From: a virus
Lineage: Duplodnaviria > Heunggongvirae > Uroviricota > Caudoviricetes
IMG/VR virus record: IMGVR_UViG_3300032516_002776
Span: 51,048 to 115,047 of that record
Strand: one strand, 5' to 3'
Length of the DNA: 64,000 nucleotides
Positions 2,260-62,916 of the stretch are shown here, piece after piece (the first letter of the stretch is position 1; every line of letters starts with the position of its first letter). Position numbers and translations under genes: made by a program. The notes under the pieces are model-generated. The model was not told the origin of the DNA. It made no database searches and worked only from the letters and a program-made list of their open reading frames with translations.

Positions 2260-3435
2260 ATGAATATATCATCTAATCAATTCTTTGATGTGATTGATTT
2301 TGATTACGAAAAAGAGAAAAAAAAGTTTGTTGAACACATGTCCTACTTGAAAAAGATGGATGTGTTTGAACAAACTTTTTACAAAAAATGGGTAGAGGTA
2401 AGAGCTTATAAAAAATTCATTGGAAAGTTATCTACTGTTAAAGCAAAGATATGGATGCCTTCTGATATTAATGATGAACAGCAAACTATACAAGAAATAC
2501 AAAATTTAAATCCAATTATTAAATTGGTGGATGATTCCGAAGAAGAAGATTGGTTGATATTGAGACTCTTTGGACACACCATGGAATTTTCTCAAACCCC
2601 CGGCCGCTTTCTAAAGTTTCTAATTACTAGTGATGATAAATATTTAGGTGTGGTATCAATTTCCAGCGATGTTATTTGCATTCAAGATAGGGACAAATAT
2701 CTTGGTTGGACATCTGTAAATAAATTAAAAGGGAATAAAAAGATTAACAATAGTGCAATTGGAAGTTGTATTATGAGCACGCAACCATTTGGATATAATT
2801 TTCTCGGGGGCAAATTGATAGCTTGTTTAATAACCACCGATGTTATTCGAGACAAGTGGAAAGAATTATATGGCAATGTATTGGCCGGAATGACTACAAC
2901 TAGCTTATATGGAAGTTATAGTATGTATAATAGTTTAAAGTGGTGGCATAAATGCGGTTCAAGCGCTGGAAAGGTTGCTTTAAAGCCAGATGATAATTAT
3001 TATAAGATATGGCATGACTATATTAAGATACACCACAAAGTAAAATACGATAAGATGATGACACAAAAAGAAGGGGTGTCAGGGCCGGTTACCGCCGCGA
3101 AGCAACGGGCGTTAGGTGTTATTTTTTCAGAATTGGGGATGAAGCAGAAAGATTTTATTCATGGCTTTTTAAGGGGGACATATTATTCTTGTTTTTATGA
3201 GAATACCAAAGATTTTTTATGCGATAAAATCACAGAGGATAAATTGAAGTTAAAGCCTTTATTTGCTGGTGGTAAGAACGAAATATTAAATTGGTGGAAA
3301 CCAAAAGCAATTGAACGCTATATCAATTTAAAGAAGCAAAATCAGTTAAAGTCTGATATTCTATTTTATGATAAAATGATTGACCTTAACTATGAAGATG
3401 CAAAGACAATGTATTTAGGTGATGTTGGACGGTAA
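2260..3435 (+). CDS. hypothetical protein, family A (paralog of 8345..9088)
   Basis: 391 aa. It shares a conserved core with the 8345..9088 product: KYLGVVSISSDVI...DKYLGWTSVNKL..NNSAIGSC versus NLIGAVGISSAVI...DKYIGWDSKTKM..NNSRFCL. This may be a GNAT-like acyltransferase core, but the family is not recognised with certainty. Confidence 0.5.
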   Translation: MNISSNQFFDVIDFDYEKEKKKFVEHMSYLKKMDVFEQTFYKKWVEVRAYKKFIGKLSTVKAKIWMPSDINDEQQTIQEIQNLNPIIKLVDDSEEEDWLILRLFGHTMEFSQTPGRFLKFLITSDDKYLGVVSISSDVICIQDRDKYLGWTSVNKLKGNKKINNSAIGSCIMSTQPFGYNFLGGKLIACLITTDVIRDKWKELYGNVLAGMTTTSLYGSYSMYNSLKWWHKCGSSAGKVALKPDDNYYKIWHDYIKIHHKVKYDKMMTQKEGVSGPVTAAKQRALGVIFSELGMKQKDFIHGFLRGTYYSCFYENTKDFLCDKITEDKLKLKPLFAGGKNEILNWWKPKAIERYINLKKQNQLKSDILFYDKMIDLNYEDAKTMYLGDVGR

Positions 3436-3451
3436 TTAAGAAATTATTCTT

Positions 3452-3467
3452 ATATAAATAGTTGACA
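3452..3467 (+). promoter_or_regulatory. T4 late-promoter-like TATAAATA box overlapping a TTGACA
   Basis: TATAAATA at 3452-3459 and TTGACA at 3462-3467, about 35 nt upstream of the QueC-like ATG. Confidence 0.3.
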
Positions 3468-3498
3468 ATTTCATTCAAGTTTGTTATTTTTATATGAT

Positions 3499-4239
3499 AT
3501 GAATAACAAAGTTTTACTTGTGTGGTCTGGTGGTTGTGATTCAACATTATCCTTATTACGACTGCTCAAAGAAAAAAAGCGTGTTCGAACTATATCAGTT
3601 ATTCATCCACAAATTTATGCCGTCGCTGAAAATGCTGCAGCCCGTCTTGCTATTCATCGAAGATTGTTTGAAATGGGACATATTCTTGACCATGTTGGTG
3701 AAGTTGTAATTACTACGCCAACCAGACGACACATTGATATTGATGGAGCAAATAATGGTGGATTAATACAGCCAAACATTTGGTTGGGCATAGCCGCCTC
3801 TTATTTAGAGCAGGATGAAGATTTAGCATTCGGTTATATGCGCACCGACGATTTCTGGCATTATAAGACAGAATTTAATGTTGCGTTTAAACATTTTACA
3901 AAAATACTTGCAAAAGAATCCAGTGAATTAATATTTCCGCTTGAATGGAAAAATAAAGCAGAAATTATAAAAGAATTACTTGACAATGATTTGTTGAAGT
4001 ATTGTTGGACATGCGAAACTCCAACACTATATGGATTTAGTTGTGGGAATTGTACTCCATGTAAACATATGATAGATGCGTGTAAAGAAATAAATATAGA
4101 ATTTCCTTTTCATTTACAAGAAGTAAAAATTGATAAAATAATAGAAGATTCTAAGTTGGTGGAAATAATGACAATTTCCGAATCCGAAAAGGTGAAAGAG
4201 TCTGTTAATGTTCTACCATGTGTTAATGTGGCTGTGTAA
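3499..4239 (+). CDS. QueC-like PP-loop ATPase (7-cyano-7-deazaguanine synthase family)
   Basis: N-terminal SGGxDS PP-loop (LLVWSGGCDSTLS). The C-terminal block aligns with E. coli QueC: PLEWKNKAEI against PLMWIDKAET, CWTCETP against TLTCYNG, and the Zn motif CGNCTPC against CGHCAAC. The track start 3481 is TTG, so the first ATG at 3499 is used. A TATAAATA late-promoter-like box lies at 3452-3459 and a TTGACA at 3462. Confidence 0.6.
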   Translation: MNNKVLLVWSGGCDSTLSLLRLLKEKKRVRTISVIHPQIYAVAENAAARLAIHRRLFEMGHILDHVGEVVITTPTRRHIDIDGANNGGLIQPNIWLGIAASYLEQDEDLAFGYMRTDDFWHYKTEFNVAFKHFTKILAKESSELIFPLEWKNKAEIIKELLDNDLLKYCWTCETPTLYGFSCGNCTPCKHMIDACKEINIEFPFHLQEVKIDKIIEDSKLVEIMTISESEKVKESVNVLPCVNVAV

Positions 4240-6036: not shown

Positions 6037-6413
6037 ATAAAAATGAAGAAATAACAATTTCTTGTGTAAACAATCTTATTGAAGAATCTTTGAAGTTAAA
6101 GACTCAAGATTATAAGGTTGATTCTAAAATAATGTGGAATAGTTGGTCGCTATGGAAGAAATTGTTATATAGATCAATCCGTAGATTGTATTGTGCTGAA
6201 TTACAAATGTGGAATTTATATACACAAGAACTGGATAATGCTTTATATTGTGGCAATCACACAACAGAATATGTTGGCAACGCAAAAAATGCACACAGAA
6301 AATGGTGGTATCAAAACAATCCTAAATCCATATTGTTGTGCGATATACTTATTAAACCAATTAAGCCATTGGAATATATTAAAATGGATTTTGTAATCAA
6401 AGGTAAAAAATGA
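6033..6413 (+). CDS. hypothetical protein
   Basis: 126-aa ORF joined to both neighbours by ATGA start/stop overlaps. Confidence 0.45.
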   Translation: MNKNEEITISCVNNLIEESLKLKTQDYKVDSKIMWNSWSLWKKLLYRSIRRLYCAELQMWNLYTQELDNALYCGNHTTEYVGNAKNAHRKWWYQNNPKSILLCDILIKPIKPLEYIKMDFVIKGKK

Positions 6414-7039
6414 ATAAAACAATCATTGGCATATCAGGATTGGCTAGAGCTGGGAAGAATTTATTTGCGGATGTTGCGATTGATATTTTAAAGAAGAAAA
6501 ATATAACCGCAAAGACTTTTGCTCTTGCGTATTATCTTAAAGAGGATTGCGCAGATTTCATTAAAACATATTTGGATTTAAGTGTTTATTCAGAAAAGAA
6601 TGAAGAGAAAGAAATATTTAGACCTCTTTTAGTTTGGTATGGCGATGTTAAGAGAAAACAAACGAAAGGCAGATATTGGATTGAAGCGTTACAAAAGGAT
6701 TTAGAGGCTTCTAAAGCTTCTGTGAATATAATAACTGATATTCGTTATACGACATATGAGCGGGATGAATGTTATTGGTTGCAAAAAGAATTGGGTGGGA
6801 AGCTAGTGCATATTGCTAAATATAATATAGATTCGGGCGGTAACAAAATCTTTGATTTACCGCCGAATGAGCATGAAGAATTTAATGACCCTATATTACA
6901 GAAGTCTGGTGATATTAAAATAGAGTGGGAAGCTATCGGTTATAAATGTAATAATAGCTATATCTGTATGTTGAATGATTCAACCATAAAAGCTGCTGTA
7001 AATGATTCTTTGCTTAAATGTGGCATTGAAGGGTTATAA
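6410..7039 (+). CDS. gp1: deoxynucleoside monophosphate kinase (T4 gp1-like P-loop kinase)
   Basis: The N-terminal Walker A IIGISGLARAGKN matches T4 gp1 LIFLSGVKRSGKD. The later ITDIRYTTYERDE block matches gp1 VPDTRQDHEMD. The length of 209 aa is compatible. Confidence 0.6.
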   Translation: MNKTIIGISGLARAGKNLFADVAIDILKKKNITAKTFALAYYLKEDCADFIKTYLDLSVYSEKNEEKEIFRPLLVWYGDVKRKQTKGRYWIEALQKDLEASKASVNIITDIRYTTYERDECYWLQKELGGKLVHIAKYNIDSGGNKIFDLPPNEHEEFNDPILQKSGDIKIEWEAIGYKCNNSYICMLNDSTIKAAVNDSLLKCGIEGL

Positions 7040-7069
7040 AATTATTATTTTAAATAAAGGAATTATAAT

Positions 7070-7345
7070 ATGAAAACAACCTATTTAGATTACTTAAATA
7101 AGCCAAATGGCAATCCAATTACCGAAATTGGCCAGCTATGCCGTAAGTGTAATACACCTGTCATAGAACAGGTGCATAAGCCAAATTGGAAGCCTAAGCC
7201 AAACCAATCATACTACTTTACAAAGTGGTTATATTGTAGTGGCTGCAAAACTGTTTATTATTTAGATAAATTTAGAGTATTTACTGATAGTAAACATGGT
7301 GATGCAGCGATTGAACGGCTTGAAATGATTGGCCATAAAGGTTAA
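7070..7345 (+). CDS. hypothetical Zn-ribbon protein
   Basis: 91 aa with two Cys pairs, CRKC...CSGC. Confidence 0.45.
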   Translation: MKTTYLDYLNKPNGNPITEIGQLCRKCNTPVIEQVHKPNWKPKPNQSYYFTKWLYCSGCKTVYYLDKFRVFTDSKHGDAAIERLEMIGHKG

Positions 7346-39433: not shown

Positions 39434-40237
39434 ATGATTGTCAAATCCACCGACAATTTATTGGGACTTGAGTTAATCTTTAATACTCATTATAGCAAAA
39501 TAATGCCAAGATTGACTAAGTATTATCTTGGTGCTTATGAAAACAATAAATTAGTGGGGGTTTTAACTTTGGGGTGGGGTACTCGACCAATTCATACGAT
39601 TAAAAAGCTATTTCCATCACTGCGGACAAAAGATTATCTGGAAATTGGCAAGATGTGTATGTTAGAGGAAATGCCTAAAAATTCTGAATCCCAATTTCTT
39701 TCTTCTGCGATAGAATGGCTAAAGAAAAATGACCCCGCCCCAAAAATACTTTTCACTTGGGCCGATGGAATATTAGGAAAGCCTGGTTATGTATATCAAG
39801 CAGCAAATTTTCTATATGGCGGATTTATATGGACAGACCTGTATATTACTGACAAGGGCGAAAAAGTACACCCTCGAACAAGTCAAGGTTTAACGGATAA
39901 GGGCGATAAAATTTGTGGCCACAGACCTACAAAGTCCTATTTAATTAAAAACGGATGGAGTCATTACAAAGGAAAGCAATTTCGGTATATTTATTTTTTG
40001 TGCAATAAGATAGAAAAGAAAAAATTATTAAAAGAATCAGTAGAAATATGGGGCAATAATTATCCAAAAAATAAAGATATAGAGTGGCAAAAGCAAGATT
40101 TGACAACGGGCGACTGGGTATCAGTGCCGAAGATGTTTTATGACCCAGCAATAACTACAATGGCTAATAAGAAAGCAATGTCTAATAAAAATAAAATGGT
40201 AGGATTGAAAACCTCCAGACAATTCTTCGACATATGA
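39434..40237 (+). CDS. Mom-like (GNAT-fold) DNA-modification acyltransferase candidate, family B paralog 2
   Basis: It shares HYS...P, YYLGAYENNKLVGVLTLGWGTRP, W.L...E.S.F.S and YVYQAANFLYGG with the 7645..8352 product. Confidence 0.4.
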   Translation: MIVKSTDNLLGLELIFNTHYSKIMPRLTKYYLGAYENNKLVGVLTLGWGTRPIHTIKKLFPSLRTKDYLEIGKMCMLEEMPKNSESQFLSSAIEWLKKNDPAPKILFTWADGILGKPGYVYQAANFLYGGFIWTDLYITDKGEKVHPRTSQGLTDKGDKICGHRPTKSYLIKNGWSHYKGKQFRYIYFLCNKIEKKKLLKESVEIWGNNYPKNKDIEWQKQDLTTGDWVSVPKMFYDPAITTMANKKAMSNKNKMVGLKTSRQFFDI

Positions 40238-40239
40238 CC

Positions 40240-40268
40240 TTGACAAAGTTTTATTGATTGTGTATAAT
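40240..40268 (+). promoter_or_regulatory. sigma70-type promoter, perfect TTGACA-N17-TATAAT
   Basis: TTGACA at 40240-40245, TATAAT at 40263-40268. The ATG of the YopX gene is only 7 nt downstream, implying a leaderless or very short leader. Confidence 0.55.
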
Positions 40269-40274
40269 CATTAT

Positions 40275-40685
40275 ATGAAGAGAGATATTAAATTTAGAGT
40301 GTGGGATAAGGTAACTGAAAAATTTGTAAAAAGTGCCGTAGGCGGTTTTGGTTGGCCGGATTACTGCGAAATCCGATTAACTCTTGAAGGTAACTTGAAA
40401 ATTGAAGCGGAATATGGTGAAGCGACATTAGACCCAGACCGATATATCATTCAACAATACATAGGCATCGAAGATGATACCGGCAAAGAAATTTATGAAG
40501 GCGATATTGTTGAATTGGAAACGGGTAATTCTGCCCAAAGTTGGATAGAAAAAATATTACCTTCTTATAATGATTTAATGACAATTTTTAAAATATATTC
40601 ACAGCGTAATCCTCATCAACATCAAATGATTCAAAGTATTAAAGTCGTCGGTAATATATTTGAAAAGAGGGGGACATTGAAATGA
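40275..40685 (+). CDS. YopX-family protein
   Basis: MKRDIKFRVWDK... is the YopX N-terminal signature. The track start 40254 is TTG, so the ATG at 40275 is used, consistent with paralog 40974. Confidence 0.55.
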   Translation: MKRDIKFRVWDKVTEKFVKSAVGGFGWPDYCEIRLTLEGNLKIEAEYGEATLDPDRYIIQQYIGIEDDTGKEIYEGDIVELETGNSAQSWIEKILPSYNDLMTIFKIYSQRNPHQHQMIQSIKVVGNIFEKRGTLK

Positions 40686-40973: not shown

Positions 40974-41480
40974 ATGAATAGAGAATTTAAATTTAGAGTG
41001 TGGTATCCAAAAGAGAAAAAATTTTATTATACATCTTTTGAGCAAGCATACGGAATATTAGGGAAAGATGCCTGGAAAGAAGAATATATCATTCAACAAT
41101 ATACAGGTCTTATAGATAAAAATGCTAAAGATATATATGAAGGTGACCTTATAACAATTACAGGTGATGTTGAAGGTCGTGAGCCATGTTCACCGACACA
41201 CAAAGAAACAAGCTGTCCTCTAGAAGTATTTTGGGATGAAAATTGGAATGGCTGGCGTGCTCGCTTCATTCCTAGTTATAACACAGACATTTATGAAAGG
41301 CATGATTTACCACGAAGTTATGAATCACATCATTTAGAAGTGGTTGGTAATATGTTTGAAAATTTGGAGACACTAAAATGGGCAAAATATATAAAGACAA
41401 AAGAGGCTCTTCCTGCAAAATGTGCAAACCGCATAAAAACAAGTGGGCAGACAAGAAAAAAGTCAAAGAAAGAGATTTAA
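40974..41480 (+). CDS. YopX-family protein (paralog)
   Basis: MNREFKFRVWYPKEKKFYY... plus shared YEGD(I/L) and VVGN(I/M)FE motifs with the 40275..40685 product. Confidence 0.55.
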   Translation: MNREFKFRVWYPKEKKFYYTSFEQAYGILGKDAWKEEYIIQQYTGLIDKNAKDIYEGDLITITGDVEGREPCSPTHKETSCPLEVFWDENWNGWRARFIPSYNTDIYERHDLPRSYESHHLEVVGNMFENLETLKWAKYIKTKEALPAKCANRIKTSGQTRKKSKKEI

Positions 41481-47902: not shown

Positions 47903-48858
47903 ATCATTTTGAGATAGAAGAACATGCAGAGGCAGAAAGTCAACACACTATATTTGTAGAAAAATATCGTCCATCTAAATTGGAAGATTATGTTGGAGAC
48001 AAGGTATTTAAAGCAACATTACAATCTTTTATTGATAAGAAAGACATACCACACTTATTGTTTTATAATTCAAGTCCGGGCACAGGTAAGACTGCTGCTG
48101 CAAAGATACTTGTAAAGAATATTCCTTGTGATTATTTGTATCTTAATGCATCCGATGAAAATGGAATTGAAACAGTACGAACAAAAATTAAAGGTTTTGC
48201 TTCATCTGCTGGTTTTTATCCTCTTAAAATTGTTATATTAGACGAATGTGACCAGATTACGCCAGAAGGGCAGGGGGCACTTCGTAATTTGATTGAAACA
48301 TTCTCTTTACATACAAGATTTATTTTAACTTGTAATTATATGGAGAAAATGATACCGCCGATTGTTTCAAGGTGTCAGACGCATAAAGTTGAATCACCAA
48401 CAAAGAAAGAAGTAGCATTATTAGTTAAAAGTATATTGGATAAGGAAAGTATTAAGTATACCGCAGAAGATTTAGCATACATTGTAAACACTTATTATCC
48501 TGATATGCGAAAGGTTATTAATTTTGCTCAACAAAGTGTTGTTGAAAGTCAATTGATTATTAATCGACATAATATTGTTGAAACCGACACCAAATTGAAA
48601 GTCTTGGAATTGTTAAAGACAGCAATTAGCAATCCAACAACATTTAATACAATTCGACAATTGATTGCTGATGCTGATATAAGGTTTTATGATGAATATT
48701 ATAAATTCTTATACGATAAGGTTGGAGAATTTGCGAAAGGTAAAGATGTCTTAGCAATTTTGACTATTGCTGAATATTTGTATCAATCATCGTTGGTAGT
48801 TGATAAAGAGATTACATTTATGGCTTGCATAGCAAGACTTATTAAGGAATTAAAATGA
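47899..48858 (+). CDS. gp44: clamp loader ATPase subunit, T4 gp44/RFC-like
   Basis: Walker A SPGTGKT, Walker B ILDECD, and an SRC motif (VSRCQT). Confidence 0.75.
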   Translation: MNHFEIEEHAEAESQHTIFVEKYRPSKLEDYVGDKVFKATLQSFIDKKDIPHLLFYNSSPGTGKTAAAKILVKNIPCDYLYLNASDENGIETVRTKIKGFASSAGFYPLKIVILDECDQITPEGQGALRNLIETFSLHTRFILTCNYMEKMIPPIVSRCQTHKVESPTKKEVALLVKSILDKESIKYTAEDLAYIVNTYYPDMRKVINFAQQSVVESQLIINRHNIVETDTKLKVLELLKTAISNPTTFNTIRQLIADADIRFYDEYYKFLYDKVGEFAKGKDVLAILTIAEYLYQSSLVVDKEITFMACIARLIKELK

Positions 48859-49004
48859 ATTGGAAAGAAATACAACGATTATTAGAAATTGACAACGACA
48901 AACAAACTCTATTAATAGAATTAATGACATTTGTAAAAGCAAAAGGCCTTTGGGAAGAATTTGAAAAATGCTCGACCATTAAAATTGTGAAGGAATTAAA
49001 ATGA
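48855..49004 (+). CDS. tiny ORF 1 of a 4-member array (49 aa, ends ...VKELK)
   Basis: ATGA overlap with the gp44 stop. The 15-nt motif AAGGAATTAAAATGA sits at its start and again at its end. Confidence 0.35.
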   Translation: MNWKEIQRLLEIDNDKQTLLIELMTFVKAKGLWEEFEKCSTIKIVKELK

Positions 49005-49138
49005 TAACCCGTGAAGAATTAAAAAATGTAATAGAAATTTTAACACGCCGATGCAATTTGATATGTACTGAAGACAATGCTACAGATATCATGACATATG
49101 ATGAATGGATTGATAACATATTAGGGGAATTAAAATGA
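49001..49138 (+). CDS. tiny ORF 2 (45 aa, ends ...LGELK)
   Basis: Same junction motif at both ends. It contains CNLIC. Confidence 0.35.
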   Translation: MITREELKNVIEILTRRCNLICTEDNATDIMTYDEWIDNILGELK

Positions 49139-49308
49139 TTTTTTGTTTTCATAACTGGGATTATTTTCTATATGGAAATCGGAAATGTATTAAATGCAAT
49201 AAAAACCAATATTGGAAAGCAACAGCAAACCTGTCCGGCGGATTTGTTAATGGAAAGAGAAATCCCCGACCGGCCGTTCAGAAACTTATCATGAAGGAAT
49301 TAAAATGA
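49135..49308 (+). CDS. tiny ORF 3 (57 aa, ends ...MKELK)
   Basis: A CIKCNK Zn-ribbon-like pair. Same junction motif. Confidence 0.35.
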   Translation: MIFCFHNWDYFLYGNRKCIKCNKNQYWKATANLSGGFVNGKRNPRPAVQKLIMKELK

Positions 49309-49409
49309 TTAAAGGCATTGAAAAAATAACAAAGAAAGATTTGTTCGATTTGACATTGCAATACAAGCAGTCGAAGATTATTTACGGCGGAAATAAATTA
49401 TGGCATTAA
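49305..49409 (+). CDS. tiny ORF 4 (34 aa)
   Basis: It starts in the junction motif and ends overlapping the next gene's start. Confidence 0.3.
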   Translation: MIKGIEKITKKDLFDLTLQYKQSKIIYGGNKLWH

Positions 49410-49726
49410 GCAATGTAGATCCAAATACTGGTATGGAATATGATTTCAGAGATTATTCTTCTATATCTAGTCCATATTCTTGTAATTCATGTTATTCTAC
49501 ACAATTTCATTGTGCAACGATGCCTGTAAATTATACATGTTATCCGATACCACCGAAGAAAGAAGAATTAAGTAAATTTCTTGGTAGAATGGTAATGTAT
49601 AAAAATAAGACTTGGAAATGTATTGCAACAGCAAATGGTCGAATCTCTTTAGAAAGGAAAACTTTCTTTCTCCGACGAATGAAATATGATACTGCTTCGG
49701 TCTATGAATTGAGGATATTAATATGA
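49400..49726 (+). CDS. hypothetical Cys-rich protein
   Basis: 108 aa. Confidence 0.4.
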   Translation: MALSNVDPNTGMEYDFRDYSSISSPYSCNSCYSTQFHCATMPVNYTCYPIPPKKEELSKFLGRMVMYKNKTWKCIATANGRISLERKTFFLRRMKYDTASVYELRILI

Positions 49727-50265
49727 AATTAAATCTTAAGCAATTAATAAATGAATTGAATATAGATCGGTCTATTGATCGAACGGCCAAATTTAAAAAA
49801 ACCACACAAAAAGTTACAAAATATAATTTTGACATATCGGGAATAAACTATGTTATAGACTTTGTAGAGGCAGAAATGCCAAGTGGGCAATCCGTATTAG
49901 AGGTAAGTTTTAAAAATTTAACAGCCATAGAAAAATTAAAAAGTAAAAAACAACGAAACACAGAAAAGTTTTATCAAGACTTGGATAGGGCTAAATATGG
50001 ACTGACGAATACAGGCAAATCAATGTTAATATTCAATGAAATTTACAATGCCGTTATAAGTTATATCGAAAAATACAAACCAGCATATTTTAAATACGAA
50101 GCGATTGAAGACAACAGAAAAAAATTGTATAATACTCTCTTGAAGCGTGCCGAAAAACAAACAGCATTGAAATTTAAAAGACTATATGTTGACCCCGAAA
50201 CGGATTACAGACTTCCTTTTTCCCTGCTTGAAAGCCAACGATTTATCTATAAAATAGAATATTAA
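49723..50265 (+). CDS. hypothetical protein
   Basis: 180 aa, joined by ATGA overlaps. Confidence 0.4.
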   Translation: MKLNLKQLINELNIDRSIDRTAKFKKTTQKVTKYNFDISGINYVIDFVEAEMPSGQSVLEVSFKNLTAIEKLKSKKQRNTEKFYQDLDRAKYGLTNTGKSMLIFNEIYNAVISYIEKYKPAYFKYEAIEDNRKKLYNTLLKRAEKQTALKFKRLYVDPETDYRLPFSLLESQRFIYKIEY

Positions 50266-50266
50266 A

Positions 50267-50500
50267 ATGAAACCTATAGACTTTAAAGATAGCAATCATA
50301 AATTTGCAGAGAAGCAAAAGGAATATATAACTTTACCCGGTTATATGGATGAAAATGGGATATTTATTTCTTGTTGGAAATTAACATTTTTTGAAAGAAT
50401 AATAGTATTACTAAAAGGTAAAATATTTTTGTCCACGATGACATTTTTTAAACCACTACAACCACAAAGAATGTCTGTAAAATTTGAGGAGGAAATATGA
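50267..50500 (+). CDS. hypothetical protein
   Basis: 77 aa. Confidence 0.35.
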   Translation: MKPIDFKDSNHKFAEKQKEYITLPGYMDENGIFISCWKLTFFERIIVLLKGKIFLSTMTFFKPLQPQRMSVKFEEEI

Positions 50501-51486
50501 ATTTTAACCAAGGATTAAATTATAATAATATTGTTTTGACGCCAAATTTTTCGACATTACCGAGCAGAAGTCTTGCGGGTACATCTTTAATTTTTGGTAA
50601 TAAAGTATTTGAATTACCTATTTGTCCGGCCAATATGGTTTGTTGTATCAGCACAGAACTTGCCTATTGGTTGAGCGAGCATAATTATTTTTATGTAATG
50701 CACCGTTTTGATGGTGAAACTAATAAGAAAGATTTGCGTTGGTTCATTGAAAAGGCTAATACGGAAATGTGGCATTGTATTAGTATTAGTATTGGAGTTC
50801 AAGAAGAAGATTATGAATTATTGTGGTGGATTAATGTACGAAACCTTCGAGTGGATTTTATTACGATAGATATTTCTCATGGCCACTGTTTAAAAATGAA
50901 GGAAATGTTAGAGTTTCTTAATAAAGAAATTAAATTTAAAAATAAAACATTTGTTATAGCTGGCAATATTGGCACGCGAGAAGCGGTTAGTGATTTAGAA
51001 ATTTGGGGCGCAGACGCAACTAAAGTAGGATTAGCCTTTGGAAAAGCTTGTATAACTAAGAACAAAACGGGATTTGCTTCTCCAATGTTTTCTACTATTT
51101 TATTATGCTCTCAAAATTCTAAAAAACCCATTATCGCTGATGGTTCAATTAGTGAAAATGGGGATATAACAAAGGCATTAGTGGCTGGGGCAACAATGGT
51201 TATGGCGGGGAATATATTTGCGGCTTGTGTTGATAGTCCCGCCGAAAGTATTTATTCTGAAAATGGCAAACACATTGTTTCTAAAAAATATTTTGGTTCG
51301 GCATCTAAACGCAGTGGAAAAACTAAAAATATTGAAGGAACAGAAGTTATAATTGAATGTAATGATATGACTTACAATGAAAAATTAGAAGAAATTAAGC
51401 AAGATTTACAATCAAGCTTATCGTTTACTGGCCATAGTAATAAACTTGAAGACTTAAAAAGAGTGGAATGGAAAATTTTACAATGA
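50497..51486 (+). CDS. guaC: GMP reductase (IMPDH/GuaC family)
   Basis: It aligns along its length with E. coli GuaC: LNYNNIVLTPNFSTLPSRS against FKDVLIRPKRSTLKSRS, IDISHGH against IDVANGY, and the catalytic-Cys block GLAFGKACITKNKTGFASP against GIGPGSVCTTRVKTGVGYP. Confidence 0.7.
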   Translation: MNFNQGLNYNNIVLTPNFSTLPSRSLAGTSLIFGNKVFELPICPANMVCCISTELAYWLSEHNYFYVMHRFDGETNKKDLRWFIEKANTEMWHCISISIGVQEEDYELLWWINVRNLRVDFITIDISHGHCLKMKEMLEFLNKEIKFKNKTFVIAGNIGTREAVSDLEIWGADATKVGLAFGKACITKNKTGFASPMFSTILLCSQNSKKPIIADGSISENGDITKALVAGATMVMAGNIFAACVDSPAESIYSENGKHIVSKKYFGSASKRSGKTKNIEGTEVIIECNDMTYNEKLEEIKQDLQSSLSFTGHSNKLEDLKRVEWKILQ

Positions 51487-52025
51487 AAAACATTTTAAAC
51501 AGAAATAGAGTATACCTTGTCGGTCAAATGCAATACATCAAAGATGGTTCTGTTTGGCGTGATTATGTCGAAGCAGAATTAAAAAAGATGGGTGTAATTG
51601 TATTTAATCCATATAATCATCCATTTATCAATTCCGTGACGGAGGATAACAATGCAACGGCAACATTAAAGAGTCTTATCGCTGAAGGGAAATATGATGA
51701 ATGTGCTGAAATTATGCGAAAGATTCGTGGCGAAGATTTACGTGTCGTTGACATTGCTGATTTTATATTTTGCTATATAGACCCGCTTAAACCGACCTGT
51801 GGGGCGTGGGAAGAAGTTTTCACGGCGAATCGCGCTAAAAAGCCTATATTTTTTGTAGCCGAAGGCGGAAAGGATGTTTGTCCTCTCTGGCTTTATGGTA
51901 CAATTCCCCATAAATATATGTATAATTCCATAGATGATGCTTTGCAAATGCTTTGGGATATTAACAGCGGTGCAAAGCCTATTGATTCTTCCCGTTGGCG
52001 CATTCTCCGACCAGAATTCCTATAA
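51483..52025 (+). CDS. nucleoside 2-deoxyribosyltransferase/DNPH1-like protein
   Basis: VYLVGQM and the DIADFIFCYID...CGAWEEVFTANRAKKPIF block resemble the NDT/Rcl family (GxAWExG). The track start is 51468, and the ATG at 51483 (ATGA overlap) is preferred. Confidence 0.4.
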   Translation: MKNILNRNRVYLVGQMQYIKDGSVWRDYVEAELKKMGVIVFNPYNHPFINSVTEDNNATATLKSLIAEGKYDECAEIMRKIRGEDLRVVDIADFIFCYIDPLKPTCGAWEEVFTANRAKKPIFFVAEGGKDVCPLWLYGTIPHKYMYNSIDDALQMLWDINSGAKPIDSSRWRILRPEFL

Positions 52026-52242
52026 ATTAACCTACATAATCAATTTATTTCTGATATATATAGCTATAAAATATTAGCTGAACAAATTATTAAAGAATAT
52101 GAATCCATATTCTGATGACATCATGCTATAGGCCTATTTGGCAGCAATTTTATATGTTATAATAATAATTTTCCAAATGATATACAAAGGCCTGTTGGAA
52201 TAAAAGGAGAATTTTTAAAATAGTATCATAGAAGAATGTAGA

Positions 52243-52368
52243 ACAATTCCACACAAATATATGTATGATTCCATTGATGATGTTTTGAATGTGCTTTGTG
52301 ATATTAATAACGGAACGCGTGAAATAGATTCTTCTAGATGGCGCCTTCTCCGAGAAGAATTTAGATAA
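52243..52368 (+). pseudogene. diverged duplicate of the 3' end of 51483..52025 (gene fragment)
   Basis: It translates to TIPHKYMYDSIDDVLNVLCDINNGTREIDSSRWRLLREEFR*. The gene tail reads TIPHKYMYNSIDDALQMLWDINSGAKPIDSSRWRILRPEFL*. The frame is closed upstream by TAA at 52216, and there is no start codon. Confidence 0.6.
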
Positions 52369-52411
52369 AATAAGTCATTATAATCATAAAATTTGTGATA
52401 TTTATGATTAT

Positions 52412-53050
52412 ATGGCAAAACATGACTATAAAAAAATAGCTAAAAGACAATTTTTAAAAGAATATGGTGATATTGGTGGCGGAATGTATGGCGGTGGTGC
52501 TGCCGTTTCTGCTGGTTTTGTAAATCCTGGAATGGGTACTTTTAGCTCTCCTGATGCACGACAAAATCTGTCGGCTTTTGCAAATAACCATCCAACCATG
52601 CAATATCCTGTTGGACAACATAAAGTTGATTGGTTTAATAGTGATAAAGCTACAGGTCCATCCGAAGAAGATGTCCAAGAATTAAAAAACAAAGTTACTC
52701 CCGATGAGATTCTTTTAGGGATAGAATACGAACTTAAAAGACAATTTCATAAGAATAAAAGTAACGCAAAAGAAATCGTTGTACAGAATTTAAAAAAAGA
52801 TCCGAAATATTATTCTAGTTTACATATGATGCAGATGAGCGATGAAAGAGTTAATGAGGAGAAAAAAATTGAAGATATGAAAGATAAAGCAAATATTAAC
52901 GATAAAGGTGTAAATGTTGATGAGGTTAAGAAAATTGTAGAAGAAATGCTTTCAAAAAGAAAGAAAACACAAGTACCAATTGATGTAAAAATCGTAACTG
53001 CTTATAATGATAGCATTGATAGAAAAACCAAAAAGCGTTGGACAGTTTAA
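52412..53050 (+). CDS. hypothetical protein with Gly-rich N-terminus
   Basis: 212 aa. It carries the motif ILLGIEYELK...AKEIVVQNLKKDPKYY, which recurs in the next gene. Confidence 0.4.
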   Translation: MAKHDYKKIAKRQFLKEYGDIGGGMYGGGAAVSAGFVNPGMGTFSSPDARQNLSAFANNHPTMQYPVGQHKVDWFNSDKATGPSEEDVQELKNKVTPDEILLGIEYELKRQFHKNKSNAKEIVVQNLKKDPKYYSSLHMMQMSDERVNEEKKIEDMKDKANINDKGVNVDEVKKIVEEMLSKRKKTQVPIDVKIVTAYNDSIDRKTKKRWTV

Positions 53051-53063
53051 TAAACAGATTAAT

Positions 53064-54773
53064 ATGAATAAGTCGAAATATCATGTTGAGCTTTTACCAG
53101 CAGAAGAATATTATAAAAATAAAGAAAAGGTAGGTGCTCATGCTATTGGTTGGGTTGTTTTAGTCAATGGTCAACCTCATCATGAAACTACGGACGGATT
53201 AAGGGGGAAAAAATTAGCAATGGATTTTGCTGAACAATTCGGATGGTCGGAAAAATTAAATGAATCAGACTGGAAACAAGTTGGAATTGGTGAACCAAGT
53301 GATCCCATTATTGGTAATCCTGCTATGAAAGGCCGCCGTTGGCAAATAGACCCATACGGCAGTGGTAAATCTTTTCCAAAGATAAATAAATCCGCGAAAG
53401 CGTCCAAATCACTTACTTATGACAAATTTTATAGTAAACTTAAAGAAGTTATAGGGTCTGACACCGAAGATGTATTTTCTAGTCAAAGCAAAGCGGCAGG
53501 TATAGAAGAATTTACTACATTTTTTCAGGTTGCTAATAAAACTGACATCGAAAAATTTAATTTGTTGTGGGATAATGGTCACACAAGAAAAGCGTGGAGA
53601 TTTATTTTATCTATTTTAAAAGCAGCTGGCAAATTAAACCTTCATGAAATTGTAGAGCCAGCAAAAGAAGAAGATGTGGATCCAAAAGAATTGAAAATGG
53701 GAATCGAATCGGAAATGGAGCATACTAATAGTGAAGGAGAAGCTAAAAACATCGCATTAACACATTTGGCTGAGCATCCTGATTATTATTCTAGAATAAA
53801 ATCCGTTGGAATTCTTGAACTTATAACAGAAGATGTAAAAAGTGAGGACAATATGAAATTTAAAGACTATTACAGAGAAGAACTCAAGGAAGCCATTGAA
53901 AATGATAAGATTAAAAATCAATGCCCCTGTGGTTGTACACCAGAAGACATGTGTGATAACGCAGATGAATGTTTGTGTGAATGCTCAACATGTGGTTGTG
54001 GAAAGCGCAATACCGAACATAGTCTTGATGAAAAGAAGTGGATTCAAGCCGCTGTCCATCCTTCCCGAAAAGGTATGCTCTCGGGAAAATCAGTCGCTGA
54101 CCTTGAAAAGATGAAAGGAAATTTAAAAAAGAGAAATACTCCGAAGAAAGAAAAGGGCGAAAAAGTTCCTCACAAGAATAAAGTAGCAATGTCGCAGATT
54201 AATTTTGCTTTGCGCGCTAAAAAGCACAAACTAACTGAAGCGGATAATTCCAACCTCTTTATGAAAAAAGGTCAAAAACTTTTTGCTTACTTTACAAGAG
54301 TCAAGAAGTTTCTTGAAGTAACATTACTCAGGGACAGTGATAAAGAAGGTTGGGCATTAGCTGAATTTATAAATCATAGGTCTGTTGTGGTAAATGTTCG
54401 AACTAAAATAGGCTATGTAGAAGATCCAGGCCGTGATACATTGCCATATGGTGTCGCAGAAGCTCTTGCTGAAGCGAATCGTGATAGTAAATTTGGCGCA
54501 CCAGCAAAAAAGGGTTCAACAATAAAGGGTAAATCGGGGCCTGGTCAAGTTGCTGAAGATAGACAAGAAACGCCTGATGAAAAGGAGATTTGTCCAGAAT
54601 GTGGGAAAAAGGAAGTCACAGTGACCTTTGAACAGGGTTATCAGGAATATCCAGGCGCATCACCTCAGGCACCTACTACGTTCCGTGAATGTGGCGCGTG
54701 TGGTTGGGATGAACTCACTAAGGGAAAATTCGATATGGACAACGCAATCGGCTTGGACGGTCAGCGGGCATAA
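53064..54773 (+). CDS. hypothetical large protein with Cys cluster
   Basis: ATG 53064 is preferred over the track start 53007. It carries LKMGIESEMEHT...ALTHLAEHPDYY, the same motif as the upstream gene, plus CPCGCTPEDMCDNADECLCECSTCGCG and a C-terminal Zn ribbon. Confidence 0.45.
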   Translation: MNKSKYHVELLPAEEYYKNKEKVGAHAIGWVVLVNGQPHHETTDGLRGKKLAMDFAEQFGWSEKLNESDWKQVGIGEPSDPIIGNPAMKGRRWQIDPYGSGKSFPKINKSAKASKSLTYDKFYSKLKEVIGSDTEDVFSSQSKAAGIEEFTTFFQVANKTDIEKFNLLWDNGHTRKAWRFILSILKAAGKLNLHEIVEPAKEEDVDPKELKMGIESEMEHTNSEGEAKNIALTHLAEHPDYYSRIKSVGILELITEDVKSEDNMKFKDYYREELKEAIENDKIKNQCPCGCTPEDMCDNADECLCECSTCGCGKRNTEHSLDEKKWIQAAVHPSRKGMLSGKSVADLEKMKGNLKKRNTPKKEKGEKVPHKNKVAMSQINFALRAKKHKLTEADNSNLFMKKGQKLFAYFTRVKKFLEVTLLRDSDKEGWALAEFINHRSVVVNVRTKIGYVEDPGRDTLPYGVAEALAEANRDSKFGAPAKKGSTIKGKSGPGQVAEDRQETPDEKEICPECGKKEVTVTFEQGYQEYPGASPQAPTTFRECGACGWDELTKGKFDMDNAIGLDGQRA

Positions 54774-60098: not shown

Positions 60099-60608
60099 AT
60101 GAATAACAAAATAACACATTTATTAAATTCAATGGAAATCTTGGATACATTCAATATTTCAAAAAAGGTTTCCAATACGGACATAACCAAATTGAAAAAT
60201 AAAATGATTGGTGATTGTTCTACACGATTTGAGTTGCAAGAATTATTAAAAGAAGAATTGATTAATGAAACAGATAAATATCTGCAAACGCATTACATTC
60301 CTGGTTTATTAACACCTAATAAAGGTCCAAATCGACCAAATAATCAGCCATCAAGGCCTACACAAAAGCCAAAGAAGCGGATTAATGTAAAAAGTGAAAA
60401 ATTTGTAAGAGTTAAATTCAATGCTGAAAACTTAGCAAAAACATTAAATGAAAATAAATTAGATAAAGAAGAAATGTTGTTTTTTGTTATATCTTTGGTG
60501 AATATGTTAGAATTAAGTGAGGATGATTTTGATGCGTTTCATAAAAAAATGGAGAGCGACGACGACTTTGAAGAAATGGACGACGACGACTCTCAACAAA
60601 TTAAATAA
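60099..60608 (+). CDS. hypothetical protein with acidic C-terminus
   Basis: 169 aa. Confidence 0.4.
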   Translation: MNNKITHLLNSMEILDTFNISKKVSNTDITKLKNKMIGDCSTRFELQELLKEELINETDKYLQTHYIPGLLTPNKGPNRPNNQPSRPTQKPKKRINVKSEKFVRVKFNAENLAKTLNENKLDKEEMLFFVISLVNMLELSEDDFDAFHKKMESDDDFEEMDDDDSQQIK

Positions 60609-60624
60609 AAACAAAAGAGGTTAT

Positions 60625-61788
60625 ATGAAAAATGTGTTACTTACACAGCAAATTATTTCTGTGTGCAAAAAACAAAATAAACCTGTTGTATTCATAACAG
60701 GCGTAACAGGTCAGGATGGTAGTTATATGGTAGATTACTTATTAAAGAATTATCCAGACAGATTCTTAATAGTTTGTGGAGTAAGGCGTAATAGTTCTTT
60801 AAATGATATAAACATAAAGCATGTTTCTGATAAAGATTATTTTTTGACATATTTTGACCTAACTGATTCTGGTAATATAAATTCGCTAATAGAAAATATT
60901 AAACCTGCTTATTTTATAAATTTTGGCGGCCAAAGTTTTGTCGGAACCAGTTGGGATTTAGCAAAGCAAACATTTGAAACAAACGCAATTTCAATGATTT
61001 CCATATTGGATGCAATAAGAAAATATTCACCGACTACAAAATTTTATCAGGCGGGAAGTTCAGAAGAATTTGGAAATGTAGAATATAGTCCACAAGATGA
61101 AAAACACCCATTAAAACCACGCAGTCCTTATGGAGCAAGTAAAGCCGCAGCACGATTATTGCTAAAAACTTACAGAGAAAGTTACAATTTATATGCGGTT
61201 GCTGGTTGGTTGTTTAATCACGAATCGGAACGGCGTGGACCTGAATTTGTTACTAGAAAAATAACAATAGGTGTAGCAAAAATTGATAAAGATATAAAAG
61301 CGGGCAATACCATCACCACCATTAAACTTGGAAATATAAACACCCAAAGAGACTGGTCACACGCTGAAGATATGGTAGATGGTGTCTGGAGAATGTTAAA
61401 TCAAGAAGTATATAATAAAGAACTGGGTTGGATTGGAGAATTTGATGGAATTGAAACTTTAATTTATGATGCATCTAAACACATCAAAGATTATGTTCTT
61501 GGTAGTGGTGAAACACATACAATTAAAGAATTTGTAAAATTAGCATTTCAAGCAGCAGGTTATCTTGGAAATTGGCATGAATTTACAGAGGGAGAAGAAG
61601 TATTTGTGTTAGCAAGTAATGATATGATTGTAGTGGAAGTTGATAAAAAATTATATCGTCCTGCCGAAGTAAATCATCTAATTGCTGATAACACTTTAGC
61701 AAAAGAAGAATTGAGATGGAAGCCACAAGTTTCATTTAAAGAATTAGTAAGTAGAATGGTTATTAACGATATAAACCTTATAAAATAA
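60625..61788 (+). CDS. gmd: GDP-mannose 4,6-dehydratase
   Basis: ITGVTGQDGSYMVDYLL and NHESERRGPEFVTRKIT are near-identical to the bacterial GMD signatures. The ATG at 60625 with an AAGAGG RBS is preferred over the track start 60517. Confidence 0.75.
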   Translation: MKNVLLTQQIISVCKKQNKPVVFITGVTGQDGSYMVDYLLKNYPDRFLIVCGVRRNSSLNDINIKHVSDKDYFLTYFDLTDSGNINSLIENIKPAYFINFGGQSFVGTSWDLAKQTFETNAISMISILDAIRKYSPTTKFYQAGSSEEFGNVEYSPQDEKHPLKPRSPYGASKAAARLLLKTYRESYNLYAVAGWLFNHESERRGPEFVTRKITIGVAKIDKDIKAGNTITTIKLGNINTQRDWSHAEDMVDGVWRMLNQEVYNKELGWIGEFDGIETLIYDASKHIKDYVLGSGETHTIKEFVKLAFQAAGYLGNWHEFTEGEEVFVLASNDMIVVEVDKKLYRPAEVNHLIADNTLAKEELRWKPQVSFKELVSRMVINDINLIK

Positions 61789-62421: not shown

Positions 62422-62916
62422 ATGTTATTATCTGAAATACATCCGAGACAATGCGATATAGTGTTTGTGCATTCTTACCACATACCAAGCGCGACAGTTC
62501 GGTGGTGGACAAATAGTTTATTTGACCATGTTGAGATTGTCGTGGATGATGCTACATCAATTGGTTCAAGGCCAAGGGGAGGCGTACAAATACATCCTTT
62601 TTCTGTTTTTGATAATAGAAAAATATGCGATTGGACTTTAATGCGTTATAGTGGAAATTTGAGTAAAAATACAAAGAATGGTATTATTAATTTTGCAAAA
62701 TCTCAGATTGGTAAACCCTATGATTGGTATGGAATTTTAGGCATTGCTATTAAGAAAAACATAGAAAAAGAAAGCGAATGGTTTTGTAGTGAATTTGTAA
62801 ATACTGCATTTTTCAAGAATAATGTAACTCTAATACCAAGAAAATCATCAGGCTTTGTTGTACCAGAATTATTATATCAATCCCTTGCTTTAGACCTAAT
62901 ATACACTACATTTTAA
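62422..62916 (+). CDS. putative permuted papain-fold (YiiX/NlpC-like) peptidase
   Basis: His (HVEIVVDD) precedes Cys (EWFCSEFV), with PYDWYGILGIA between. The assignment is weak. Confidence 0.3.
   Translation: MLLSEIHPRQCDIVFVHSYHIPSATVRWWTNSLFDHVEIVVDDATSIGSRPRGGVQIHPFSVFDNRKICDWTLMRYSGNLSKNTKNGIINFAKSQIGKPYDWYGILGIAIKKNIEKESEWFCSEFVNTAFFKNNVTLIPRKSSGFVVPELLYQSLALDLIYTTF

Follow-up and report, generated by a model that had tools for sequence, protein, structure and literature searches.

Mosaic joints that arise from one homeologous and one illegitimate recombination have been described in lambdoid phages (Martinsohn, Radman and Petit 2008, PMC2327257). For integration, the textbook case is the icd/icdC pair around e14 in Escherichia coli K-12 (Hill et al. 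1989; summarized in PMC13626634). Here we analyzed a stretch of 64,000 nucleotides (nt), referred to as the window, from a large phage of the class Caudoviricetes (IMG/VR virus record IMGVR_UViG_3300032516_002776, positions 51,048 to 115,047). In this window, the 3' end of an intact gene related to nucleoside 2-deoxyribosyltransferase (NDT) and DNPH1 is followed, a short distance downstream, by a second and diverged copy of the same gene end. For simplicity, the working 3' end of the NDT gene is called copy 1, the downstream repeat is called copy 2, and the next gene, which has an unknown function, is called g212; all positions are numbered within the window. Also relevant to this locus are the free-standing homing endonucleases SegF, SegG, and MobE of T4-like phages, which co-convert flanking markers in the process known as "intronless homing". 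Comparison of the locus with its relatives shows that copy 2 is the resident gene end, probably displaced by an out-of-register and partly illegitimate recombination with a phage resembling the lineage of contig L102.

The duplication itself is well defined. An ungapped alignment of positions 51900-52025 with positions 52243-52368 revealed identity at 96 of 126 nt (76%) and at 29 of 41 amino acids, with a local alignment score of 79 as compared to 14.1 ± 1.9 (maximum 21) for shuffled sequences (n = 300). At the amino acid level, copy 1 reads TIPHKYMYNSIDDALQMLWDINSGAKPIDSSRWRILRPEFL and copy 2 reads TIPHKYMYDSIDDVLNVLCDINNGTREIDSSRWRLLREEFR, each followed by a TAA stop codon. The start-to-start distance of the copies is 343 nt and the pair is the strongest direct repeat anywhere in the window. 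Identity is 85% over the first 20 codons and 67% over the last 21 codons, a gradient that, by our estimate, does not reach significance over so short a stretch. On the left, copy 2 starts abruptly, and the sequences share no homology upstream of 52243. On the right, homology extends past both stop codons for ~75 nt with indels (51900-52101 matches 52243-52466), and the post-stop part is significant on its own in a collinear test (p = 0.008). The duplicated unit spans the gene tail and the 43-nt intergenic region and reaches ~19 codons into g212. Six contigs (L090-L095), built from different samples with different assemblers, match one another at 99.98-100% over 3-11.6 kb, and in all of them 386 nt lie between the intact gene's stop and the g212 start. 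The presence of the same structure in six independent assemblies rules out an assembly artifact. Among 88 loci with an NDT homolog, two tail matches were found in the window only.

These results agree with a first-pass annotation of the sequence, which had described a diverged duplication of the last ~42 codons at roughly 75% DNA identity, with the frame of copy 2 closed upstream by a TAA (located at 52216-52218). Two of its descriptions need refinement. Copy 2 indeed has no gene start; however, an internal ATG at 52261 opens a reading frame of 35 amino acids and is the only start codon in frame. A Shine-Dalgarno-like motif just upstream of 52261 was not apparent on reading the sequence, for which no dedicated scan was run. 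Likewise, the spacer between the copies, given as 215 bp and noncoding, is 217 nt long (52026-52242) and does lack a sizeable open reading frame (ORF; none of at least 60 amino acids), but it holds a degraded intergenic region and a pseudogene fragment of g212. This dead copy of the neighboring intergenic region and g212 start takes up approximately 65 of the 217 nt.

The origin of this dead copy was revealed by the homologs of g212. Frame 1 of the spacer reads SYKILAEQIIKEYESIF followed by two stop codons, while the N terminus of g212 is MAKHDYKKIAKRQFLKEYGD. A search with g212 identified P0036, a protein encoded on contig L102 that is 62% identical to g212. The N terminus of P0036, MKRKITYKILAEQIIKEYGD, has 12 consecutive residues identical to the YKILAEQIIKEY of the spacer (score 60; 99th percentile of the null, 25), and the g212 fragment in the spacer carries stop codons in the P0036-matching frame. 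At the DNA level, positions 52037-52099 are identical to L102 659-741 at 57 of 63 aligned nt (90%), and the intergenic part of this match, 52037-52063, aligns to L102 659-685. Within the same stretch, the window lacks 20 nt (GTAATGAAAAGAAAAATTAC), a deletion that took the ATG and the first five codons with it. By comparison, the backbones of the window and L102 are only 66-74% identical (68.8% for g212, 72% for an ArdC-like gene, and 73.6% for a helicase), and the excess similarity of 52037-52099 over the backbone is significant (binomial p = 3e-4 to 1e-3). Over the same stretch, the start of the window's own g212 is ~70% identical to L102. Because the piece following copy 1 matches L102 at 90% while the own g212 start reaches only ~70%, the piece came from an L102-like phage rather than from duplication in place. 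This demonstrates that 52037-52099 is of foreign origin.

Copy 2, on the other hand, belongs to the resident arrangement. In the closest relative, L005 (73% amino acid identity), and in L010, L011, and L012, the order of NDT gene, intergenic region of 41-43 nt, and g212 is undisturbed; g212 homologs also follow the NDT gene in L001-3, L013, L014, and L016. The distance from the stop of copy 2 to the ATG of g212 is 43 nt, as compared to 42 nt in L005 and 41 nt in L011 and L012. The intervening sequence is nearly identical in the window and L005 (Table 1) despite saturated synonymous sites between the two (proportion of synonymous differences, pS, 0.63-0.73). Taken together, these comparisons show that copy 2, its intergenic region, and g212 are the resident arrangement, collinear with L005.

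The sequence of copy 2 is also that of a typical member of the family. Its reading frame is intact and finishes with the family-consensus end RWRLLREEFR and a stop codon. Scored against a profile of the family (76 members, window excluded), copy 2 reached 60.5 bits, the L005 tail 60.0 bits, and copy 1 56.0 bits, the last of which is below 96% of family tails. The working gene of the window ends in RILRPEFL and a stop codon (52005-52025) and is atypical at codons 179 and 185 of the 185-residue ORF: Ile179 and the C-terminal Leu185 each occur in 1% of the family, while Leu is found at 179 in 97% of members and Arg at the C terminus in 99%. When differences were polarized with L005 as the outgroup, copy 1 carried the derived state at 17 and copy 2 at 10. 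In addition, the identity of the gene body to its relatives correlates with that of the copy 2 tail (rho 0.56) more than with that of the copy 1 tail (rho 0.33), which favors copy 2 as the original tail, although this is suggestive only. The one other family member that ends in RILRPEFL is P0022 (L096/L098), which is 56% identical overall and uses different codons. It was ruled out as a donor based on these codon differences and on downstream DNA that is unlike the spacer.

The preservation of copy 2 places its displacement recently. The dN/dS ratio (nonsynonymous to synonymous substitution) between the copies is 0.32. In a decay simulation, 8-20 random substitutions maintained the profile score of copy 2 in 0 of 1000 runs each and introduced a stop codon in 34-64% of runs; each random hit costs ~1.5 bits and carries a 6-7% risk of a stop. 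Since copy 2 still scores as a canonical family tail, it was recently orphaned and can have taken no more than a few hits afterward. The 24% divergence between the copies arose almost entirely while both were part of working genes. Positions 52243-52368 should therefore be annotated as a pseudogene fragment, and positions 52037-52101 as a second one.

Based on these findings, the explanation that we consider likely is that copy 2 is a resident gene end displaced by out-of-register, partly illegitimate recombination with an L102-like phage. This is in line with a possibility raised by the first-pass annotation, namely exchange with a related phage carrying a variant allele: 52037-52099 resembles L102 well beyond the backbone, and copy 2 fits L005 and the family better than copy 1 does. 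The ancestor would have had the order NDT gene, 43-nt intergenic region, and g212, as is still found in relatives. During a mixed infection, L102-like DNA would have been joined in out of register. The incoming DNA would have included at least the donor NDT 3' end, the intergenic region, and the first ~19 codons of g212, and would now end at ~52101. Donor DNA followed by 141 nt of filler would then abut codon 144 of the resident NDT gene at 52243. The resulting order would be an NDT gene with a donor-type tail (copy 1), a dead donor intergenic region and g212 start, filler, copy 2, the resident intergenic region, and the working g212. A single unequal crossover between two genomes would suffice; alternatively, the resident gene could have been broken, repaired with the donor as template, and sealed by end joining. 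As to the type of joint, we infer that the exchange was not cleanly homologous and that one joint was out of register, because a clean exchange would leave no duplication. Copy 1, and possibly the gene body and the island upstream of it (g108, g180, g77, and a GMP-reductase-like gene), may have arrived in the same event.

A potential trigger is found in the gene content of the relatives. On L102 (contig Ga0393283_0017955), the ORF at 3-665, immediately upstream of its g212, matches PHROG 374 "HNH endonuclease" (4.6e-26), although Pfam did not recognize an HNH domain in it. The endonuclease gene is absent at this place in L005, L011, and L012, where the NDT gene directly precedes g212. Further insertions of this kind are present in the relatives. 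In L011 700-13540 (contig TBL_comb47_HYPODRAFT_10001087), the clamp loader (three pieces), g212 (two pieces), the ArdC-like gene, and the helicase are all interrupted, and one interrupting ORF, at 2857-3867, encodes a TnsA-like endonuclease (PHROG 15427, 4.9e-20). The L011 ORFs 6321-7049 and 7042-7335, which split g212, gave no PHROG hit and only subthreshold Pfam matches. L096 and L098 have LAGLIDADG ORFs beside the NDT gene. Copy 2 begins at the stretch of the NDT gene that is most conserved and encodes TIPHKYMY, and highly conserved coding stretches are the kind of sequence that homing endonucleases tend to target. Given the HNH gene immediately upstream of g212 in L102 and the many such insertions in relatives, a nuclease-made double-strand break near the TIPHKYMY stretch is a plausible trigger.

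Several observations weigh against this reconstruction. The 90% L102-like patch is short, at 63 aligned nt. The L102 contig ends inside the endonuclease gene, so that the NDT gene of this lineage was not seen and an origin of copy 1 or of the gene body in the L102 lineage is at best presumptive. The NDT homologs P0003 and P0007, which were looked up for the NDT gene of this lineage, come from other samples and were uninformative, and the searched collections contained no NDT homolog with an identity between 73% and 100%. No endonuclease ORF or recognizable remnant was found in 52026-52242, and only 11 nt separate the stop of copy 1 from the L102-like sequence. Together these imply that the donor either lacked the endonuclease gene or that the gene was lost cleanly. 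The gene body is 70% identical to L005 at the nucleotide level with a pS of 0.73, which equals the divergence of copy 1; copy 2 is 75.6% identical, and the difference is not significant (p = 0.14). Since L005 is too distant and synonymous sites are saturated, the left end of the imported segment is not placeable. Lastly, the reconstruction leaves the 141 nt between the donor-derived piece and copy 2, referred to as segment X, unexplained.

Segment X could be either filler or decayed DNA. Neither 100+ related loci, nor L102, nor the rest of the window contains a match to it, and its RNA fold is not significant (z = +0.29). An Rfam search of the whole window at gathering scores, and of 51800-52500 at E ≤ 5, returned nothing near any threshold. 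A 21-mer match to two Herpetosiphon genomes was discarded, as it stops at 22 nt and ~0.3 such matches are expected by chance (an estimate). The segment contains one sigma-70-like site (TTGGCA-17-AATAAT, 52138-52166), which is below chance expectation, and an orphan Shine-Dalgarno motif (AAGGAG) at 52204, which was given no weight because even a loose motif precedes only 13 of 58 genes in the window. Searches for further relatives of the locus were likewise negative: blastn aimed at distant matches of 50400-53200 to GenBank phages gave no match, IMG/VR scans with g212, P0036, a back-translated RWRILRPEFL-stop pattern, and a 29-mer of segment X found no relatives, and a protein search with the 41-residue copy 2 peptide produced no candidate from the word index.

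The same recombination could have left a copy 2 that has since been kept for a function, either as the 5' leader or promoter region of g212 or as a standby C-terminus cassette. We regard this as very unlikely. Copy 2 is perfectly open, canonical, and fixed in six assemblies, and it offers a C-terminal residue that the working gene lacks (Leu in place of the 99% conserved Arg). It also directly abuts a strongly conserved, probably regulatory hairpin. The hairpin is formed by a perfect 12-nt inverted repeat (52379-52390 and 52401-52412) that ends on the A of the g212 start codon, is predicted to fold with -13.1 kcal/mol (z = -3.05; z = -2.1 for the L005 equivalent), and occurs as a palindrome once in the window; the region probably controls the translation or transcription of g212. 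The degraded intergenic copy that follows copy 1 has no significant RNA fold (z = -1.05). However, no promoter-like site was found within copy 2, the only in-frame start is the internal ATG, and the comparison with L005 reveals no conservation beyond codon constraint (synonymous difference 0.48-0.70). Fixation is uninformative on selection because the available genomes are >99.9% identical, and the preservation of copy 2 is explained by its recent orphaning. In NDT enzymes of solved structure, the C terminus reaches into the active site of the neighboring subunit. If the orphaned tail were maintained as a second canonical C-terminal cassette or as a g212 transcript leader, which we find very doubtful, homeologous recombination between the copies would delete the 343-nt interval and switch RILRPEFL to the consensus RLLREEFR, resulting in two enzyme states in the population.

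Site-specific integration, the other origin put forward by the first-pass annotation, would require that a small element with a replacement 3' end inserted at codon 144 and has since been reduced to the 217-nt spacer. The geometry fits, as an intact gene with a variant tail is followed by intervening DNA and a displaced tail with a sharp left edge, and the empty site is seen in relatives. Still, this origin is very improbable. There is no recombinase or sizeable ORF between the copies, and no integrase or recombinase was seen among the neighboring ORFs scanned. The ~65 nt of intergenic region and g212 start from a related phage are sequences that an att-type element has no reason to carry, and the host molecule is the replication module of a large phage rather than a chromosome. 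The copies share no long identical core: the longest exact run between them is 12 nt (AAATATATGTAT), the left edge consists of 8 identical nt (ACAATTCC), and conserved codons account for these runs equally well.

Slippage or unequal sister exchange could also have duplicated ~343 nt in tandem and in situ, from codon 144 of the NDT gene into early g212, with the two copies then diverging in place, but this is likewise very improbable. Such a duplication accounts for the 343-nt spacing and for the collinear tail, intergenic region, and g212 start in both copies, and the synonymous divergence between the copies (0.45) is below that to L005 (0.60-0.75). It does not account for a g212 fragment that is 90% identical to L102 and only ~70% identical to the window's own g212 start, nor for the contrast between an undecayed copy 2 and an equally old g212 fragment that has lost its start and carries stops. 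Segment X has no significant similarity to the continuation of g212 (p = 0.066); decay from the NDT gene body was rejected in the same way (p = 0.29). Lastly, a diversity-generating retroelement acting on the gene's C terminus through a template and variable repeat pair would also give two ~126-nt copies of ~76% identity at a gene 3' end and just downstream, but it is extremely improbable, given that the 30 mismatches are not adenine-specific (copy 2 has A at 12 of them and copy 1 at 8, with 11 substitution types), no reverse transcriptase was seen among the neighboring genes scanned, and the homology runs on into the next gene.

Table 1. Features at and around the duplicated NDT gene end (positions within the window)
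Feature	Position	Strand	Basis or remark
GMP reductase / IMP dehydrogenase-like gene	50497..51486	+	Pfam PF00478, E 7.8e-41; PHROG 9582 "dehydrogenase", 1.1e-67; source annotation "GMP reductase"
Intact nucleoside 2-deoxyribosyltransferase / DNPH1-like gene	51483..52025	+	180 amino acids from likely start; longest ORF from 51468
Copy 1, working 3' end of the NDT gene, 41 codons and stop	51900..52025	+	Repeat alignment
Degraded intergenic copy, hairpin and start-codon context lost	52026..52063	+	28/43 identical to L005 intergenic region
Dead 5' fragment of a g212 allele, codons ~7-19	52064..52101	+	Reads YKILAEQIIKEY; ATG and first codons gone
Segment X, orphan stretch of 141 nt separating the donor-derived piece from copy 2	52102..52242		Without ORF
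Copy 2, probably displaced resident 3' end, 41 codons and stop, without start	52243..52368	+	Alignment, family profile
Functional intergenic region before g212	52369..52411	+	40/42 identical to L005 (L005 6541-6585)
g212, function unknown, first ~19 codons in duplicated unit	52412..53050	+	Homologs in relatives

The duplicated gene was compared with known families by sequence and by predicted structure. Both Pfam matches were subthreshold (PF15891, 27.6 bits with a cut-off of 30; PF05014, 22.2 bits with a cut-off of 28.8), and a profile search against PDB sequences found an NDT at E = 0.15. The AlphaFold model had a predicted local distance difference test score (pLDDT) of 87.3 and a predicted template modeling score (pTM) of 0.85. 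A Foldseek search of the PDB with this model gave 42 matches at E ≤ 1e-3, and all of those listed were NDT, DNPH1, or the rat ortholog Rcl. The best match was the NDT 9emx (E 2.5e-6, probability 1.00), human DNPH1 was also among the top matches with a probability of 1.00, and target-normalized template modeling scores were 0.6-0.73. The model thus indicates that the duplicated gene has the nucleoside 2-deoxyribosyltransferase/DNPH1 fold. More than 520 homologs of the NDT gene were found in metagenomes, and g212 has 48 homologous protein clusters. The start of the NDT gene is probably not 51468 but 51483, where it overlaps the stop of the upstream GMP-reductase-like gene in an ATGA.

The window is a module for replication and nucleotide metabolism belonging to a large phage, and contigs that carry proteins of the window reach 204,840 bp. 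Its G+C content is ~31%, and the gene products recognized include a family B DNA polymerase, a Mom-like protein, a clamp loader, an ArdC-like protein, and a helicase. In the relatives, the order is clamp loader, variable island, NDT gene, g212, g588, ArdC-like gene, and helicase. Clamp loader and NDT gene are separated by an island (48858-51483) that measures ~0.2 to 2.6 kb among relatives and is largest in the window, where it holds g108, g180, g77, and the GMP-reductase-like gene, which is translationally coupled to the NDT gene. No homologs of g180 and g77 were found in about 100 loci. GMP-reductase-like genes near the NDT gene are also present in L067, L086, and L098, at different positions and in different orientations, and an IMG/VR scan with the GMP-reductase-like protein returned two loci (51% and 32% identical), neither of which is informative on the duplication. 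A strain represented by L100 and L101 (ERR12814456 and ERR12814457) is ~97.4% identical at the DNA level to positions 49509-51627 of the window and has the same order of g108, g180, g77, GMP reductase, and NDT. Its contigs end before the duplicated region, and the strain is the best material at hand for dating the event.

Elsewhere in the window, a Mom-family protein is encoded at 39434-40237 (PF25680, 3.9e-48), close to the DNA polymerase gene. The combination of Mom-family, NDT/DNPH1-like, and GMP-reductase-like genes hints at DNA base modification or nucleotide-pool remodeling. The genes at 40254-40685 and 40974-41480 are tandem paralogs that form diverged direct repeats (75% over 59-63 nt) and are related to YopX-domain genes of L005. 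Gene orientation flips at ~35.2 kb, with 9694-35203 on the minus strand and 35253-64000 on the plus strand. The sign of the GC skew flips at ~35.2 kb as well, with a cumulative skew minimum near 32-36 kb. Transcription diverges from this position, which may also serve as a replication origin. Two auxiliary metabolic genes are located at the right end of the window: a GDP-mannose 4,6-dehydratase (60517-61788; PF16363, 8e-98) and an enoyl-CoA hydratase-like gene (62422-62916; PHROG 1128, 8.8e-29).

The scar described here is a new example of known phage mosaic recombination and reveals no new kind of element or mechanism. Phage mosaicism is attributed to illegitimate and homeologous joints, whose scars selection usually erases. 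This one is unusually legible, since the gene end, intergenic region, and gene start of both the resident and the incoming DNA can all still be read, and sampling has captured a relative of the donor. The locus provides a concrete and datable case of module exchange in large uncultivated phages, as well as a testable link between homing endonucleases and out-of-register repair.

Among the systems compared, diversity-generating retroelements share with this locus a diverged ~126-nt repeat of a gene 3' end located just downstream. They differ in the lack here of adenine-specific mismatches and of a reverse transcriptase among the ORFs scanned, and in a repeat that enters the next gene. The icd/icdC pair is closer in appearance. 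There, too, an intact gene has a variant 3' end, in that case supplied by the element, the original 3' end persists as a downstream pseudogene, and recombination between the two would restore the original tail. Yet e14 spans 15 kb, encodes its own site-specific recombinase, and has a defined attachment core, while the intervening DNA here is 217 nt, has no recombinase, and in part copies the start of a neighboring phage gene. Intronless homing in T4-like phages resembles the present case in that L102, unlike its relatives, has an HNH gene between two conserved genes, and in that adjacent sequence moved between lineages. In contrast, the window has no endonuclease gene at the site, and normal homing is a clean conversion, so that a partial duplication needs aberrant end joining. 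The lambdoid mosaic joints differ from this locus in the kind of phage and in register: here the phage is a large uncultivated one known from metagenomes, not a lambdoid, and the exchange was out of register, leaving a 126-nt orphaned gene end and a dead gene start. In other respects they are alike, in that the partners are related but diverged phages, one side lies in moderately diverged homology while the other joint has none, and the imported patch is 90% identical to another lineage within a backbone of 66-74%.

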